This document shows, in pieces, positions 1,676 through 63,039 of a stretch of 64,000 nucleotides of DNA. The DNA lies in the NCBI GenBank assembly GCA_951406725.2, contig OX597822.1, positions 112,964,001 to 113,028,000 of the forward strand, given 5' to 3'. A program made the position numbers and the translations under genes. The DNA is from Octopus vulgaris. Its lineage: Eukaryota. Positions within the stretch are counted from its first letter, which is position 1, and each line of letters opens with the position of its first letter. Below the pieces are notes generated by a model. It worked only from the letters and a program-made list of their open reading frames with translations, was not told the DNA's origin and did no database searches.

Positions 1676-3622
1676 TAAATTAGAGATAAAACCACTACTA
1701 GGCAAATCAAACAGTGAAAAACATAAAGCAAGACATAGAAATAAAATTAATTAATATAAAATACAAAATATATAAAATATAAAATTCAAAATTTAAATCC
1801 ATAGAAATATGTTACAAAAAGAAAATAGAAACTACACGTGGAAATGTAAGGGAAAAGTAAGAAGAAAAATAAGCGAAAATGCACGTTGGAAATTAAAAAA
1901 TTAAAGGCTTTTTATGAAAACTAACGATAGATATATACAATTAGCAAAACTGAGGTAGGAATAAAAGTAATAAAATTCATTATTGTGAATTGTTAAAGGG
2001 ATTCAAAAGCATACCGGTTTCGTGAGTATATTAATAATTGCTTTGAATTCACACCGATTTATGAACTGTGTCAAGTCTGCTACGATTATGTGTAAGGGAG
2101 GTATGTAGTTCTGGATTTGGTGCAATTAGGGTAGATATAATGTAATGTGAATGATGTATGGAATGAATGGGGGTTAGTGGTATTAATTAAAAGGTTAGTA
2201 GTGTTCTGTATTATGTTATGTATTCATATTGAGTTGGGGAAGATATTTATTGATGTAAGTTGCCTCTTTATTCATTCTTTGTTGTACTGAGGTGTTCTGT
2301 GAACATTGTTAGAAGGGGAAAATTAGGAAATTACGATTAAGATTGCTAGCACACCTTTCTATGTGTTTACTAACCTGTATCTGTCTGTTTTGTGGGTGTC
2401 GGATTTGTTCTTTCTGGCGAGTGATTCTTCGACGGAGTGATATTCCTGTTTGACCAATATAATTATTACCACACCCTAAGCATGTAATGGCATAGATTAG
2501 ATTTTCTGAGGTAAAGGTGAAATTTGACTTGATCTTGTTTAAAGTGGAATTCTGAACCCTCCAAAAGGTGGGAGCATGTACCACAGTTAGGTCGACCACA
2601 TTTTTCTCTTTTGGTTCTGTTGTTAATGGATATAGTCTTGGGCTGCTTAATATTTTTTCAATGATTGAAGTTGCATTTTGCTCTTGATAATTTTGTGTGA
2701 GCCTAAAATTTTGTTCATTGTTTATCTCCTGTGAGGATGGAAAGATTTTGGATGATAATGTTGAAGGCTTCGTTGTTTCTAGGGTAGCGTGTGGAGATTA
2801 TTGGGAGTATTTTTAAGTCTGGTTTGGTATTTCGGTTGACTTCCCTTAATGTTCGCATATCTATTTCCATAGCTCGTTTAATGCCATCATTTATTAATGA
2901 TATTGGGTAATGTCTTTTGATTAGTATTGATCTGAGTTCAAGGAGTCTTCGTTCACGAATATTGGTGTCCGAAACTATGGTACAGATTCTTTTCGCTAGA
3001 TTATAAGGTATATTAATTTTTATGTGTTTGGGGTGGCATGAGTTGAATAATAGGTATTGTTTAGAATCTGTTGGTTTATAGAAAATGTCCATTTCGATGT
3101 GGTTATTGACTATTTCAATTAGGATGTCAAGAAAAGGGAATTGTTTATTGCTGTGCTCCATGGTGAATTGCATGTTGCTATTAATATTGTTAAGCATTAT
3201 TTTGAAATCGAGGAGTTTGTCCATGCTGTCTTTCCAAAGTATGAAGCAATCGTCCAAATATCTCTTCCAGTTCCCCATAAATAGCAATGAAATGAGGTGC
3301 CATACTTTTGTAGTGATGATTAATATATTTTAAGCTCTAGGTAACCCATTACAAGGTTCGCAATCACTGGAGTAGCTCGGGTTCCCATTGCAATTCCCCA
3401 TTTTTGTCGATAGTAAATTGTATCGAACATGAAATCGTTGTTCAGTAGGATGAATTTGAGTGCTTCGATTATGAATCTGTGGTTAATACGTCCTGGGATC
3501 TCTTCTGGGTATTTTTCTGGCCAGAAGGTGATCGCTTCTATACCATAATCGTGTGGGATATTGGTGTACAAATTCACTACATCGAATGATACTAGCCGGG
3601 TTCCTTCATTTAATGTCTCCAT
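1672..3622 (-). mobile_element. Penelope-like retroelement, 5'-truncated and frameshifted (RT, Cys-rich linker, C-terminal GIY-YIG, 3' UTR)
   Basis: RT motifs SFDVVNLYTNIPH, GIAMGT, RYLDDCF, PFLDI; linker KCGRPNCGTC (alternative frame near 2600-2570); GIY-YIG NLIYAITCLGCGNNYIGQTG; 3' end abuts (TA)n. Confidence 0.92.
2001..2049 (-). ncRNA. Decayed type-I hammerhead motif in the Penelope 3' region
   Basis: ATTCAAAGCA-[ATTATTA in place of CTGATGA]-ATATACTCAC-GAAA-CCGG-TA-TGCTTTTGAAT. Stem I, GAAA, palindromic stem III and UH site are retained; the core is eroded. Confidence 0.55.
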
Positions 3623-7272: not shown

Positions 7273-7395
7273 TTTATTATATAGAAGGAGTTTACAGATA
7301 GTACTGTTTCATTCAAGAGAAATCTTCAGGAAGCTTCCTGAAGATTTCTCTTGAATGAAACAGTACTAGTCCTGTAGAAGCTCCTTCTATATAAT

Positions 7396-16174: not shown

Positions 16175-16380
16175 GGTCCGGTAACCGCGTGTGTATCGTT
16201 GGCGATTTTCTTTCTCCGTCTTCCCTTCCTTTCCTTTTTCTATGTTTCTGACGAAGAGCTCCGCTCGAAACGTTAAATCCTCCTTCTTTCTTTCCATCTC
16301 TGAGCGTCCAATAATACTATACTTGCTCCACGTCCTCGCGTCGTTCTGTTTTCTCTTTGTTCATGTTTGGATTAACTATA
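16173..16380 (+). mobile_element. Short hammerhead-bearing element (family H2; motif at 16244-16278 with canonical core)
   Basis: GTTT-CTGACGA-A-GAGC-TCC-GCTC-GAAA-CG-TT-AAAT; its 3' tail also occurs at 1345-1423 (+) and 42120-42183 (-), each ending on (TA)n. Confidence 0.75.
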
Positions 16381-29587: not shown

Positions 29588-29682
29588 CTAATTGGTTGCA
29601 GAATTCGGAAGTAAACCGAGGAATGGTCGCCGCCGGACACCCAGACTTTCCCATTTCACCCAAGACAATCTGGCAGTCAAAT
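29588..29682 (-). CDS. Fer2: Fer2/PTF1-family bHLH transcription factor, terminal coding exon 2
   Basis: Polypyrimidine acceptor ttttttttctttttacag|AT at 29683/29682. Joined to exon 1 it reads (G|AT) DLTARLSWVKWESLGVRRRPFLGLLPNSATN*, which completes the conserved Fer2 C-terminal WNTSDLTARLSWxxW motif. Stop codon TAG at 29590-29588. Confidence 0.9.
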
Positions 29683-49594: not shown

Positions 49595-49654
<60 letters not shown>

Positions 49655-49658
<4 letters not shown>

Positions 49659-50257
49659 ATATTGGCAGGGCTTACTGCTAGGAAGTCGGCCGTATGCTAG
49701 AAACAGATCATCAACGATCAAACTACAAGGAAATTCTCTAGTAGTAAGCACCAACCGCAGTGAATTATTTACTGCAGCCCTTCGCCTCAGGAATTTTTTA
49801 GCGCGCCAGAACCAAGACATTTGAAATTTTATCCCTAGTGTAATCGGTAAAACTAAGCACGTGTCTGTCCTGGCACGGAAAGCTGGGGTTAGTTTTTTAG
49901 TTTACATTTGCAATGAACGAATGCACTGAAGAAGCACGGACATTTGAATTACGTAAGTAATTCTTTTGTTAAAGGCCGAAACCGAGGTATGCATTTAATT
50001 CTGTTTTTTATATAAATTTTCATCTGTCCTGCCCGCCAAATTTGGTTCTGGTGTTCGCTGAATTATTCCTCTAGAGAATTTCCTTCTAGTTTGATCGTTG
50101 ATGATCTGTTTCTAGCATACGGCCGACTTCCTAGCAGTAAGCCCTGCCAATATACACATATATTAGAATTTTCTCTGACTTCTCAGATTTTTTGTATGCT
50201 GGACTACTGGTTTTAAATTGATATTAAAATTAATATTAATTTATCTCCCTCATTATT

Positions 50258-50262
<5 letters not shown>
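49655..50262 (+). mobile_element. Structured hammerhead element (family H4) with 87-bp inverted arms
   Basis: Arms 49655-49741 / 50071-50157 (one mismatch); internal rod-like pairing; 3' end shared with 12591-12692; ends on (TA)n. Confidence 0.8.
49919..49996 (+). ncRNA. Type-I hammerhead ribozyme candidate, intact core
   Basis: GAATGCA-CTGAAGA-AGC...GAATTAC-GTAA-GTAATTC...GCC-GAAA-CC-GA-GG-TA|TGCATTT: 7-bp stem I, GNRA-capped stem II, short stem III, GUA cleavage triplet (cut after 49989). Confidence 0.8.
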
Positions 50263-50315
<53 letters not shown>

Positions 50316-50345
50316 CATACATACATACATAGATACATACATACA

Positions 50346-50379
<34 letters not shown>

Positions 50380-56663: not shown

Positions 56664-56956
56664 GTGTGTGTCCTATTTTTAGCTTTATTGTTTTTTGTAT
56701 TTTATATTCGTGTGAAATCATCGTCCGTTTTTCTGTCCCTGTTTCGTATACATTCGATCCTTCTTCCAAGAAATCTAATGCTCGTAGCTTAGTTTTTCCT
56801 TGGGGCTGGCCGGATCGGACCGATCTGAAGATTAATCAGTCGAAATTGCGAGGATGATCCGGTTCTTGACTGAAGATTGAAGGCTTCGAATGTCCCGTCC
56901 GTGTTTTTGTATCGTCTTCTAAATGTTTTACGTTCTTGTCCCACCTTGTATTTTTC

Positions 56957-59375: not shown

Positions 59376-60508
59376 TGATAGAAGTGTTGCCGACGTAGGC
59401 CAATAGCAAGCTCTTTCGAGTTTGTTTGATCGTACAAATATACATACATATATACATACATACATACATACATACATACATACATACATACATACATACA
59501 TACATACATACATACATAATACATACATACATACATACATATATACACGCAAGGTCATAGGCACACACATAAATATACATAAAGTTTTTTTTAAATAAAT
59601 GTTTGATGCAGTCACAAGATTTGAAGATTCTCTTAAATTAAAAATCATTAATAACACGTGTGTGTGTGTGTGTATGCATGTATGTATGTATGTATGTATG
59701 TATGCATGTATGTATGTATGTATGTCTGCATGTATGTATGTATGTATGTCTGCATGTATGTATGTATGTATGTATGTATGTATGTATGTCTGCATGTATG
59801 TATGTATGTATATATATATATATGTATGTATGTATATATATATATATGTATGTATGTATGTATGCATGTATGTCTGCATGTATGTATGTATGTATGTATG
59901 TATGTATGTATGTATGTATGTATGTATGTATGTATGTATGTATGTATGTATGTATGTATGTATGTATGTATGTATGTATGTATGTATGTTTTTGTGTATC
60001 TATATGCACGTACTTACAGATACATGCCTCGTTATGCATGAAAACAGAAATACTTTTCTATTTTCTTATAAAATCTAATATTTGTTGTTTTATCAATATA
60101 ATGACAAAAACTAATATCATAAATATCTTTTAGAGGACTATGCAATATTTATCCGTGTATCTTAAATATTACTGATATTGTTAAAGAGTGTACAATGATG
60201 TAATGTTCTAAGTACAGAAATGGTAGAGCTAATGTTTGTAGATTGCAGGCATCTTACATTGATATATAATACAGTATACGCTTTATGTTAGTTTGTTATT
60301 CATGTAAGTTTGAAAGAGTATATATATTTACGCTTGAGAGAGTGTATGTATTTAATAGTGGTATATATTAGTGTTTGTATTTCACGTTGCTACAGTGTAT
60401 ATATTTGATGTTGCTGCAATACATATATCTAATATTCAGATTGGTCCATATTTTAAAGAAAATTTACAATAAAGTAGCCAGAGTAGATAAGCAAAAGAGT
60501 ATACGTAC

Positions 60509-62504
60509 CACTTGTGTTCCATACAGCTTTCATCTTGCTGCCAGTTCCCTGTCGGAGCGAGTTTTCAACATATTCAAGGGGATCGGCCCCTGACATAAGA
60601 ATTTCCCTGAGCAGGGCAATATAAGCAATAGCCAAACGTAAAGTGTCAATCTTGGAAAGCCGTTTCTCGTACGGGAATGTCGGAACATGACAACGGAGTT
60701 CTTCAAAGGCAGAGTTGATACTCAACATTCTTTTCCTCTCTCTGATGTTAGCTGCATGCCTCTGTATTTGATATGGGTTCGGGGTGAGGCAACGGCGCTT
60801 TCTAGAGCTCGTCTCTTCACAACTAACGCCGCCCCCTATCTCAGACATGGATGCACAGCCCACTCCGCTAAGTCCTATTCCTCCTACTCTTACTCCTCGT
60901 CCTTCTGCTCCAGAGCTTACACTTACCCCTTCTGATTGACAATAAACACCCCCTGCACACATATGTGTACGGCTGTTGCTGCAGCTTTGCAGAAGAGAAG
61001 AATGGAAGTGACCACTTTGGGTTGCATTCACTACTGCCTGTTCCTCTCTCTCACAATCTAGTTTGAGATGTGATTGGTGGTTAGGGTGAAGATGGAAGGA
61101 TGAAGAAAGATTAGACGATGTAACAGATGGCGTTAGCGGTGATTCTTGGTTGCAGTGCTCGCTAGATGAACAATGAGGAAGATAGTAATGGTATTGGTGA
61201 GTTGAATCCTGGTTGCTGCTTTCGTTTGAGATTGTTTGGTTACTGTACGAGTTCACTTGCTCTTTTGTTCCTTCTTCGAAGTTAGTAGTTGGGTACATAT
61301 AATCATTTGTAGGCAGTTCCTCTTTCGCCACTTCTATATTAGAAGGACATGGGCTAACCCTGTTTTGCGATAACTCTAGATTACAGTAAGAATTCGACAG
61401 AAAGAAATTACCTCCTTCCACTTCCTCGTCTTTCTTCTTTTTCTTCTTCTTCGCTTCTGTATTTGAATTCTTACTTTTATCAACTGCCTTTACGAGGTAT
61501 TTTTGCTTTGAAGGTTGCAGTCTACACTCTGGCGATTCTAACAGCAAACTGGCGTAATCCGAAATAATACTGGCTGTTAAAATATTTTCTACAGTATCAG
61601 TGCTTTTTGTATCCTGACTGAGTTCACTGTCCAAATATTGAGAGTGCCATGGAGAAAGTTCGTTTTCTTGTTCTTGGTGCAGATCTTGATGTTGATTTAA
61701 TTTTTTAGGATAATTAAGATTATCACTTTCGTTATTGCAGACCTCACTATGGTAAGCCGTATGGTTGCAATTGTCAGTTCTGTCTGTTTTCTCTTGCTGC
61801 AATGGTTGTTGTTGTTGTTGTTGCTGTTTTTGATTATGCTGCAATTGTTGGTGGAGGTGTTGATGCTGTTGTTGGTGTCGTTGCCGTCGCAGGCCGTTTA
61901 CATTATGGTAAGAACAATGTGAAAGATCCTGATGAACACATTCAGGGCCGTTGTCTTGTTGCTGGTACCTCTGGGGTTGATTTAGCTCCACATGCAAATA
62001 CACTGATGCCGCCAATTTCTCGCTCTCATCATGTTGGTGTGGATGCAGGTGGAGGCTTTGCTGTTCTGTTTTCTGCTGACACTCTCTATCCACTTCGTCT
62101 CCGTCTGCACGCGGGTTCTGTCGCTGGTCGCAGACATAGTTGCGTGATATAAAGAAATAAGGCTTTCGACTAGTTCGCTGCTGTCGCTGCAGCCGTCTGC
62201 ACCACTGCCGCCGTTGTGATGGGCGGGGGTCGCTGCTGTAACTGCAGCCATCATTGTCAACAGTATCTCTACCAGTATCTATGCAAAGAATTTCCGTCAT
62301 TTCATCGTCCATCCCTACATTCCCGCTACTGCTGCTACTCGCTTCTTCTTCGGGTAACTGAATATCGGAGGAGAATTTTCTTGCATCATATTCGAACTCT
62401 GATCCATAAACATCTACTATAGAGTTACTTTCCTGCCAAAGTTCACGGTTAAATTGAAATGTAGTGAAAAGAGCACCCAAAGGTGGCATGACAGTCGATG
62501 TCAT
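60509..62504 (-). CDS. Fer2: Fer2/PTF1-family bHLH transcription factor, coding exon 1 (665 codons + 1 nt)
   Basis: The ORF contains [56 protein letters not shown] (bHLH, ~60764-60595), followed by DPLEYVE...WNTS as in Fer2-type proteins. A phase-1 splice donor follows WNTS: AGT G|GTACGT at 60509/60508. The N-terminal ~580 aa are low complexity (Q, H, S, K runs), so the true start codon is less certain. Confidence 0.9.
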
Positions 62505-63039
62505 TGCTTTACTGACTTTTTCTTAATGTAGGTACATTTTGGTATCAAGTTAACGATCAGCTGATAAAGGAACTTTTAATAGGCAGCCTTTTACAGATGT
62601 TTCCTGTGGAGAATTTACTAAAAGGAGAATTACTGTGAAGAATTTACTAAAAATTCTGCGGCGAAGGTTGTTGAAATTAGTCACTGAACTAATGTGAAAA
62701 CAAAAAACATTACTTTGAAGTTTGTTAGGAATAAATTGTTTTCTGCTAGAATAATGCTTTTCCTCAAGGTTTTAAATTTTAATAAATACGAAATTAAAAA
62801 TTTATCAAGGGTAGAAAATGGCATTAGATAAAGATCTATGGATAAAAAAAAATTTAATCTGATTGCTAAAAAAGAATTAAGAAGTTATGCGAGAAGAGAC
62901 TGACACTGTCAGCTGTATGATCGACTTCAATAAATTTTGTGAACCACTAATCCGTTGATATTTATAGAGAAATCTCGGTGCTGCGGCTGCGTTCATTTGT
63001 TCTCCGACCTCTTTCTTTCTTTTCTTACTCATCTTCATC

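Follow-up and report, generated by a model that had tools for sequence, protein, structure and literature searches.

The region at positions 49655-50262 of the window carries a hammerhead ribozyme motif in a rod-like predicted fold and is bounded by a long inverted repeat. The window is the whole 64,000-nucleotide stretch of Octopus vulgaris DNA analyzed here (contig OX597822.1, positions 112,964,001 to 113,028,000). The question is what kind of element this is and how it came to be inserted. A preliminary description took it for a non-coding, structure-selected, hammerhead-bearing mobile element of the retrozyme type. Our analysis agrees with this assignment: the core is conserved, the fold covaries and hundreds of copies are present. 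The bounds given earlier capture the region, but the retrozyme unit itself starts at 49734 and ends at 50264. Based on genomic sequence, we conclude that the element is most likely a copy of a family of non-coding animal non-LTR retrozymes with a unit of ~545 nt. The family is likely mobilized in trans by the reverse transcriptase/endonuclease (RT/EN) of a Penelope-like element, probably from a circular RNA.

The genome contains many related copies. An 18-mer of the rod has 525 exact genome matches, and an exact 23-mer of the ribozyme has 76; the reversed-pattern controls gave 0 for both. Close copies of the inner part are found in the 2.8-Gb genome at 93-100% identity (40 full-length matches scored of 1,251 candidates). 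A survey of copy number and tandem arrays, which had been proposed earlier, thus revealed a dispersed family of hundreds of copies, some of them tandem. For the analysis of loci, 144 stretches were fetched, representing 140 distinct loci after removal of duplicates. The dropped rows are L028, which is the same locus as L029, and L116 and L130, which apparently arose from L115 and L129 by segmental duplication. L031 consists of two short separate pieces and was also left out of the counts of divergence, of end sites and arms, and of arm content and collinearity with Penelope-like elements (PLEs). The counts of (TA)n flanks and arm overlaps left out only L028. Because the loci were found through motifs internal to the unit, the statistics on truncation are biased.

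In other loci, the sequence continues from 50264 via a 13-nt linker into 49734, with periods of 545-546 nt. The unit is therefore ~545 nt long and circularly permuted. The main arm of the window copy, at 49734-50264 on the plus strand, is nearly a whole unit without the ~13-nt linker that joins end to start in tandem copies. More than one unit is present in 58 of 141 loci and more than two in 2, the longest array reaching 3.9 units. Most copies are dispersed and span 0.3-1.7 units. Unit ends are permuted and are not LTRs. The GC content is 36% (196/545), and the longest ATG-initiated ORF round the unit circle has 15 codons on the plus strand and 35 on the minus strand. The longest such ORFs of the region as first described have 15 (plus) and 55 (minus) codons, in line with the earlier statement that no meaningful ORF is present. 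Subfamilies range from ~90% to 98% identity to the window copy, and the youngest has a mean internal pairwise identity of 98.6%. Two sister families, B (542 nt) and C (a 537-nt period in one locus, L171), are 60-70% alike and appear to share the layout and end sites of family A, to which the window copy belongs.

The hammerhead of the window copy is of type I and is located at 49919-49996 on the plus strand. Its core is present as first described, with CTGAAGA at 49926-49932, GAAA at 49978-49981 and GTA at 49987-49989 (CUGAAGA/GAAA/GUA in the RNA), and the predicted cut follows 49989. The 7-bp stem I (49919-49925/49990-49996) and the hairpin capping the long stem II (49946-49963) were likewise recovered. 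A regex filter found no other hammerhead-like site with 5/5 stem I pairs in the window. Rfam did not detect it at the gathering score or at E≤10, where the only matches were microsatellite-driven. Stem I is extended (49915-50001, plus strand) by a conserved C/AA internal loop and a 3-bp outer helix (49915-49917/49999-50001). The C/AA loop is a candidate for a tertiary contact with the internal loop of stem II. Stem III comprises 2 bp around a self-complementary CGAG and is of the dimer type. The predicted duplex between two such loops has an energy of -6.6 kcal/mol, and the predicted pairing probability in the monomer is 0.01. As modeled, a stem III of this kind is typical of ribozymes working as dimers.

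The preliminary description regarded an A-C pair at the base of stem II as the only defect. A49933 is indeed opposite C49977, but this pair is the family norm rather than specific to this copy, and stem II also lacks one base. Stem II is one base shorter in the window's subfamily than in the others. The predicted pairing probability of stem I in the window copy is 0.00 in the full unit and 0.43-0.59 in the isolated segment 49900-50010. Stem I pairing is predicted to be low in the unit context across units as well (0.00-0.24). For the window copy, the earlier ranking of this site as the best candidate for activity is doubtful: besides the low stem I pairing, it has a 2-bp stem III needing a partner, a 1-nt deletion in stem II and a single hammerhead.

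The hammerhead core is conserved in the family. Among 30 copies, the core columns are invariant or identical in 29/30, with the exception of the free position 7. The pair 10.1/11.1 is A·C in most family A copies, which makes it the norm of this family. Family C and a few older copies have G-C at this position, and family B has U·U. Family A may possibly be read instead with an extra A preceding a G10.1-C11.1 pair, as in PLE hammerheads described in the available text of PMC4209133. Stem II reads GCC/GGC, GTC/GAC or CTA/TAG depending on the subfamily, which fixes its register. In stem I, 5/10 pairs have changes on both sides, and the C/AA internal loop is kept. The core and both internal loops are preserved across families that are only 60-70% alike. 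According to these comparisons and the predicted pairing, the core is placed in weak contexts: A·C in family A, U·U and C4 in family B, and low stem I pairing. The natural core variants (A·C, U·U and G-C at 10.1/11.1, and C4) constitute a small allelic series for hammerhead biochemistry.

The sister families have features of their own. In family B (L093:2096-2575, minus strand, and L145-L169), the core reads CCGATGA, with C at position 4, in 22/24 hammerheads. It has a U·U at the base of stem II and a palindromic ACATGT stem III. In family C (L171, L174 and L186), the basal pair of stem II is a canonical G-C.

By regex, 8/141 loci carry a pair of complete hammerheads spaced by one unit. Two consecutive complete hammerheads are what Li et al. 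use to call a retrozyme 'active'; the family contains such copies. The window copy is not among them: it is shorter than one unit and has one hammerhead.

The ends of the copies are highly constrained. Main arms end at one of two sites in 127/140 loci. The first site, S1 (50154-50163, plus strand), terminates the main arm in 37/140 loci; in copies whose main arm ends at S2, the inverted arm usually has its outer end here. S2 (50259-50264, plus strand) is located ~105 nt after S1 and is the main-arm end in 90/140 loci. Both sites are putative RT start sites. A second arm in inverted orientation is found at the truncated end in 73/140 loci, and its length is variable. Among two-armed copies with both outer ends at S1 or S2, the two arms use opposite sites in 53/54 (Fisher p 8e-13). 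The window copy follows this arrangement, its S2 arm being ~530 nt and its S1 arm 88 nt long, with an 8-nt overlap at the join. Its inverted arm, at 49654-49741 on the minus strand, is a copy of 50071-50158 (88 bp with 1 mismatch, first reported as a near-perfect repeat of 87 bp) and would have been primed from the other DNA end at S1. The 8-nt microhomology joining the arms (49734-49741, no strand) is also the position of the helix that closes the predicted rod.

The variation of the arms, together with their placement at opposite sites, indicates that the outer repeat is a Penelope-type insertion scar and not a pair of terminal inverted repeats (TIRs). It had been viewed as part of the RNA rod; it is rather a by-product of insertion, its length and junctions varying among copies and 67/140 copies having no inverted arm. 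These observations also bear on an ordinary MITE, with 88-bp TIRs around a chance hammerhead-like motif. The window copy alone would fit such an element, its near-perfect outer inverted repeat being flanked by TA. Across the family, the varying arms and the many copies without an inverted arm argue against it; in addition, the right repeat is followed by another ~105 nt of the element, and the family combines a conserved core with tandem, permuted units. The copy survey, which found neither fixed TIRs nor uniform ends, leaves this explanation with a negligible probability. Fold-back copying of the first cDNA was considered as another origin of the inverted arm. In 15 of the 73 two-armed loci, the inverted arm holds at least 30 nt missing from the main arm, and fold-back copying is therefore ruled out.

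Copies are found preferentially next to (TA)n. (TA)5 is found beside 68/83 3' ends, 33/39 inverted-arm ends and 27/44 plain 5' ends, compared to 10.5% of background windows. The window copy is flanked by (TA)n/(TG)n on the left (49595-49653) and by (TA)n/(TACA)n on the right (50261-50378), neither with an assigned strand, which are probably the two sides of the target microsatellite. Any target-site duplication (criterion >4 bp) is hidden by (TA)n on both sides. Truncation points are scattered round the unit, with 4/213 within 3 nt of the predicted cut site in a sample biased by the choice of loci.

Together, the 5' truncation, inverted 5' copy, one-sided tail and microsatellite target form a Penelope-like footprint. 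An inverted 5' copy, a tail at one end and a (TA)n bias are described for PLEs in the available text of PMC8557442, and that of PMC11167929 explains them by two internal RT start sites and the extension of both target strands. The EN+ PLEs covered by these sources and PMC4209133, as far as their accessible text goes, share with the octopus family the 5' truncation, partial tandems, inverted 5' copy and microsatellite targets, as well as a 'tail' at one end set by two internal RT starts with both target strands extended. Unlike them, the octopus unit is free of ORFs, the equivalent of the tail is ~105 nt rather than 30-40 bp, and the hammerhead is extended rather than minimal.

In L1 twin priming, the second DNA end primes an internal copy, which results in a 5' inversion joined at microhomology. 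The octopus family differs in that both arms would be primed at fixed sites and overlap in sequence.

The predicted fold of the RNA was compared to dinucleotide shuffles, an analysis suggested earlier. The whole region gives z -25.4 on the plus strand and -12.9 on the minus strand; these low values are mostly due to the DNA inverted repeat. The plus-strand preference holds when the inversion is excluded (49742-50070, z -4.7 plus and -1.4 minus). The nested helices described initially are present at 49789/50065, 49804/50042 and 49816/50012. They form a rod that encloses the hammerhead (49789-50070, plus strand, with the same z of -4.7 vs -1.4), and its inner part has compensatory changes relative to family B. 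The outer and outermost rod is not retained in the aligned columns of family B. A second structured domain (50079-50264, plus strand, z -3.5) holds both fixed 3' end sites and has covarying helices in the RNAalifold consensus. When units were folded as circles, z was -4.4 (plus) and -2.4 (minus) for A, -3.5 and -1.4 for young A, and -3.6 and -0.4 for B. The circular monomer is predicted to be ~60% paired.

The structure of the window copy was placed on a 28-sequence alignment. In total, 90.3% of the cells are paired, compared to 35-48% in slid controls, and 17/77 pairs are changed on both sides. RNAalifold yielded two-sided changes in 28/104 pairs. The alignment suggests that the plus-strand fold covaries with a sister family of 60-70% identity, mostly through one A/B split and not through many independent events.

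The size, the hammerhead and the highly paired plus strand are also what an endogenized fragment of a self-replicating viroid-like RNA would exhibit. Such an origin is highly improbable: hundreds of DNA copies bear footprints of reverse transcription and form graded subfamilies and sister families, and the minus-strand fold is near chance. An excess of A>G, which would mark RNA editing written into DNA, was not seen either (0 of 10 variants that are private to one locus and present in two of its passes or arms, a small number). The architecture may be called viroid-like, as in the preliminary description, with regard to shape but not with regard to the mode of spread, which is via DNA copies. 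An additional RNA-level cycle of the retrozyme is possible.

Repeats within a locus provide information on the template. With AT-rich end zones masked, they differ by 1.5% in tandem (136/9243) and by 1.8% between inverted arms (181/10085). The same positions differ between loci, across subfamilies, by 6.8% (tandem) and 7.7% (inverted). Within-locus comparisons are below the between-locus median in 45/52 tandem and 55/60 inverted cases. Repeats within a locus thus agree far beyond those of different loci, and each insertion therefore seems to have been copied from a one-unit template for more than one round. A circle would be the simplest such template; alternatively, template jumping could have taken place on a linear monomer. 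In the longest array (L085), there are 0 differences between units and 3/410 relative to its own inverted arm; later local expansion, homogenization or assembly collapse is possible at this locus.

The template could also be linear. PLE-driven insertion would then use read-through multimers, or a monomer with template jumping, and the hammerhead would be weak or protein-helped and not required. Several observations point in this direction. Non-canonical 10.1/11.1 pairs and C4 are tolerated in spreading subfamilies, the subfamily with the stem II deletion still made copies of more than one unit (L004, L015 and L016), and ends do not pile up at the cut site. In addition, hammerhead cleavage is dispensable for insertion by a purified PLE, which inserts uncleaved RNA according to the available text of PMC11167929. 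The preserved core and internal loops of the distant families speak against a linear template, as does the agreement of subfamily alleles inside each locus, which requires a one-unit template in each generation. We consider the linear template unlikely and favor the circle.

None of the database records with family sequence is listed as RNA. Contigs of seven runs of guessed or unknown kind, with no silent-stretch control, were compared with the family, and we do not count them as evidence. In run X13, for which RNA is only a guess, a 573-nt contig has the same 30 bases at both ends and spans one whole unit, as expected of a closed circle but equally of tandem repeats in DNA or RNA. In runs X1 and X9, one inverted-arm junction is present at high depth, which is compatible with read-through of one locus.

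The octopus family resembles the animal non-LTR retrozymes of coral, mussel and axolotl. In the accessible text of PMC7229834, PMC7761336 and a bioRxiv survey (10.64898/2026.07.22.740005), these are likewise non-coding, with one type I hammerhead per unit and both tandem and dispersed copies. Low GC (36% here), a weak stem III and a self-paired predicted circle are also shared. Axolotl HHR_Amex2 has a U·U mismatch at the base of stem II (PMC7229834, text as available), a precedent for the A·C here. The 545-nt unit exceeds the 150-450 bp range given in the parts of PMC7229834 consulted, and lies within the 51-972 bp of the corresponding parts of the bioRxiv survey. Unlike the animal non-LTR retrozymes portrayed in these texts, the octopus family occurs mostly as dispersed copies of 0.3-1.7 units. 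Cleavage and circles are demonstrated for the former, whereas the octopus family is known from sequence alone. Prediction is no guarantee of activity: of the 9 predicted retrozyme dimers in the Xenopus part of the bioRxiv survey, as available, only 1 showed cleavage in vitro. The Dolichopoda pDo500 satellite (PMC2837043, available text) is similar in having a hammerhead repeat of ~500 bp, in which compensatory changes occur and for which a double-hammerhead mode has been proposed. It differs from the octopus family in forming a satellite array instead of dispersed two-armed insertions, and in keeping canonical 10.1/11.1 pairing by compensation.

Animal retrozymes are thus known, and in the available text of the three sources above their copying back into genomes by PLEs has been inferred mainly from co-occurrence and from homology to pseudo-LTRs (pLTRs). 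Here, the Penelope footprint is read directly at retrozyme insertions, with the nearly strict opposite-site rule. No description of such a family was found among the papers listed by searches on hammerheads, retrozymes and cephalopods (in the broadest of them 40 of 4,262, none containing 'retrozyme'); the supplements of PMC7229834 and of the bioRxiv survey may still list it. The main text of PMC13282606 contains 0 mentions of hammerhead, retrozyme or ribozyme. We therefore propose that the family is a previously undescribed member of the animal non-LTR retrozymes, which would work like a non-autonomous PLE.

Penelope-like sequence is abundant in the genome, with ~16,095 candidates (150 scored, with one PLE query). 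The query was a broken Penelope-like RT/endonuclease fragment in two frames at 2309-3329 of the window (minus strand). An intact candidate driver is found at L225:2587-5019 (minus strand). This young element has an 811-aa ORF, a minimal U3-A8 hammerhead and (TA)n flanks. It contains an 857-bp partial tandem at 99.2% and two 3' end sites ~47 nt apart, and an inverted copy at 99.7% is found in L229. The RT/GIY-YIG label of L225 and the PLE labels of the window fragments are our assignments, from motifs recognized by eye. With Pfam, neither of the PLE fragments in the window gave a match, and L225 gave an RVT_1 match below threshold only. The CxxxxCxxC linker makes L225 'Neptune-like', a placement by description in the available text of PMC8557442 alone.

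No sequence is common to the retrozyme unit and the 3' end of the candidate driver, which weighs against mobilization in trans by it; incidental fragments were seen in 3/46 PLE loci, and no driver sharing 3' sequence with the unit was found among the candidates scored. Another possibility is that the unit is the pLTR of an autonomous PLE and the copies its 5'-truncated remains. Type I hammerheads occur in PLE pLTRs, and these yield truncated and inverted copies (PMC4209133), and vertebrate retrozymes derive from pLTRs (bioRxiv 10.64898/2026.07.22.740005), both according to the accessible portions of these sources. The PLE protein search, moreover, scored only 150 of the candidates. An autonomous PLE has an ORF for RT and GIY-YIG between its pLTRs. 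The octopus unit instead closes on itself in 58/141 loci and is ORF-free between repeats, and PLE protein matches occur in only 6/193 retrozyme loci, none of them collinear upstream of the main arm. A pLTR origin of the copies is therefore very unlikely, and mobilization in trans is preferred.

A few loci combine the family with other sequences. At L055:487-1721, a retrozyme arm is located head to head with a 3' piece of an L225-related PLE (82% nucleotide identity). The PLE piece takes the place of the second arm and is connected via a short inverted retrozyme piece. This single case may be a later nested insertion. In L003, L017 and L113, the second inverted arm seems to come from other (TA)n-ending repeats. 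The four loci suggest occasional two-template insertions.

Mobilization of the retrozyme in trans by a PLE could proceed as follows. The rare copies with two hammerheads (8/141 loci) would be transcribed. The two ribozymes would excise a 545-nt monomer, probably acting as a dimer because stem III has only 2 bp and is self-complementary, and a host ligase would close the circle. The Penelope-like protein would then make a double-strand cut in a (TA)n run, and the resulting DNA ends would serve as primers, one for copying the RNA from S1 and the other from S2. Copying would stop at different distances, in many cases only after passing the ribozyme site and completing more than one unit, and the two cDNAs would be joined head to head at a microhomology.

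A more specific scheme can be offered tentatively, and we hold it to be rather less probable than its negation. The family may be a still-active circular-RNA parasite of an intact, (TA)n-targeting PLE of the L225 type. One enzyme dimer would copy the 545-nt circle from S1 and S2 at once, one per DNA end, and would switch templates, as at L055. The hammerheads would be detuned (A·C or U·U, C4) so that circles survive and only dimers are cut. If true, this would provide a ready driver-passenger pair for reconstituting retrozyme retrotransposition, which is so far only proposed in the literature available to us. The presence of a young subfamily and an intact candidate driver in one genome makes an in vitro test feasible.

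The window copy itself is located antisense inside a 30.8-kb phase-1 intron (29683-60508) of a bHLH gene on the minus strand. The HLH domain of this gene corresponds to aa 587-638 of the 60453-62522 frame, and the second exon starts at 29682. We take the gene to resemble PTF1A. With one hammerhead and an antisense intronic position, the window copy is not a likely source of new copies and probably represents a dead end.

The segment 50243-50262 was considered as an snRNA-type PSE, based on a PSE consensus. This is unsupported, since inspection by eye of the upstream regions of 12 U2 and 10 U6 loci did not find the motif. As a separate observation, L241-L252 contain at least 48 full-length U2 snRNA matches, which have several different upstream sequences and are in some cases arrayed.

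Additional CTGANGA...GAAA motifs are found in the window at 7307-7360, 16248-16270 and 56825-56845, including an inverted pair at 7307/7338. The pattern has 8 matches in the window, compared to 3.0 expected. These other sites are probably minimal hammerheads of other Penelope-related repeats.
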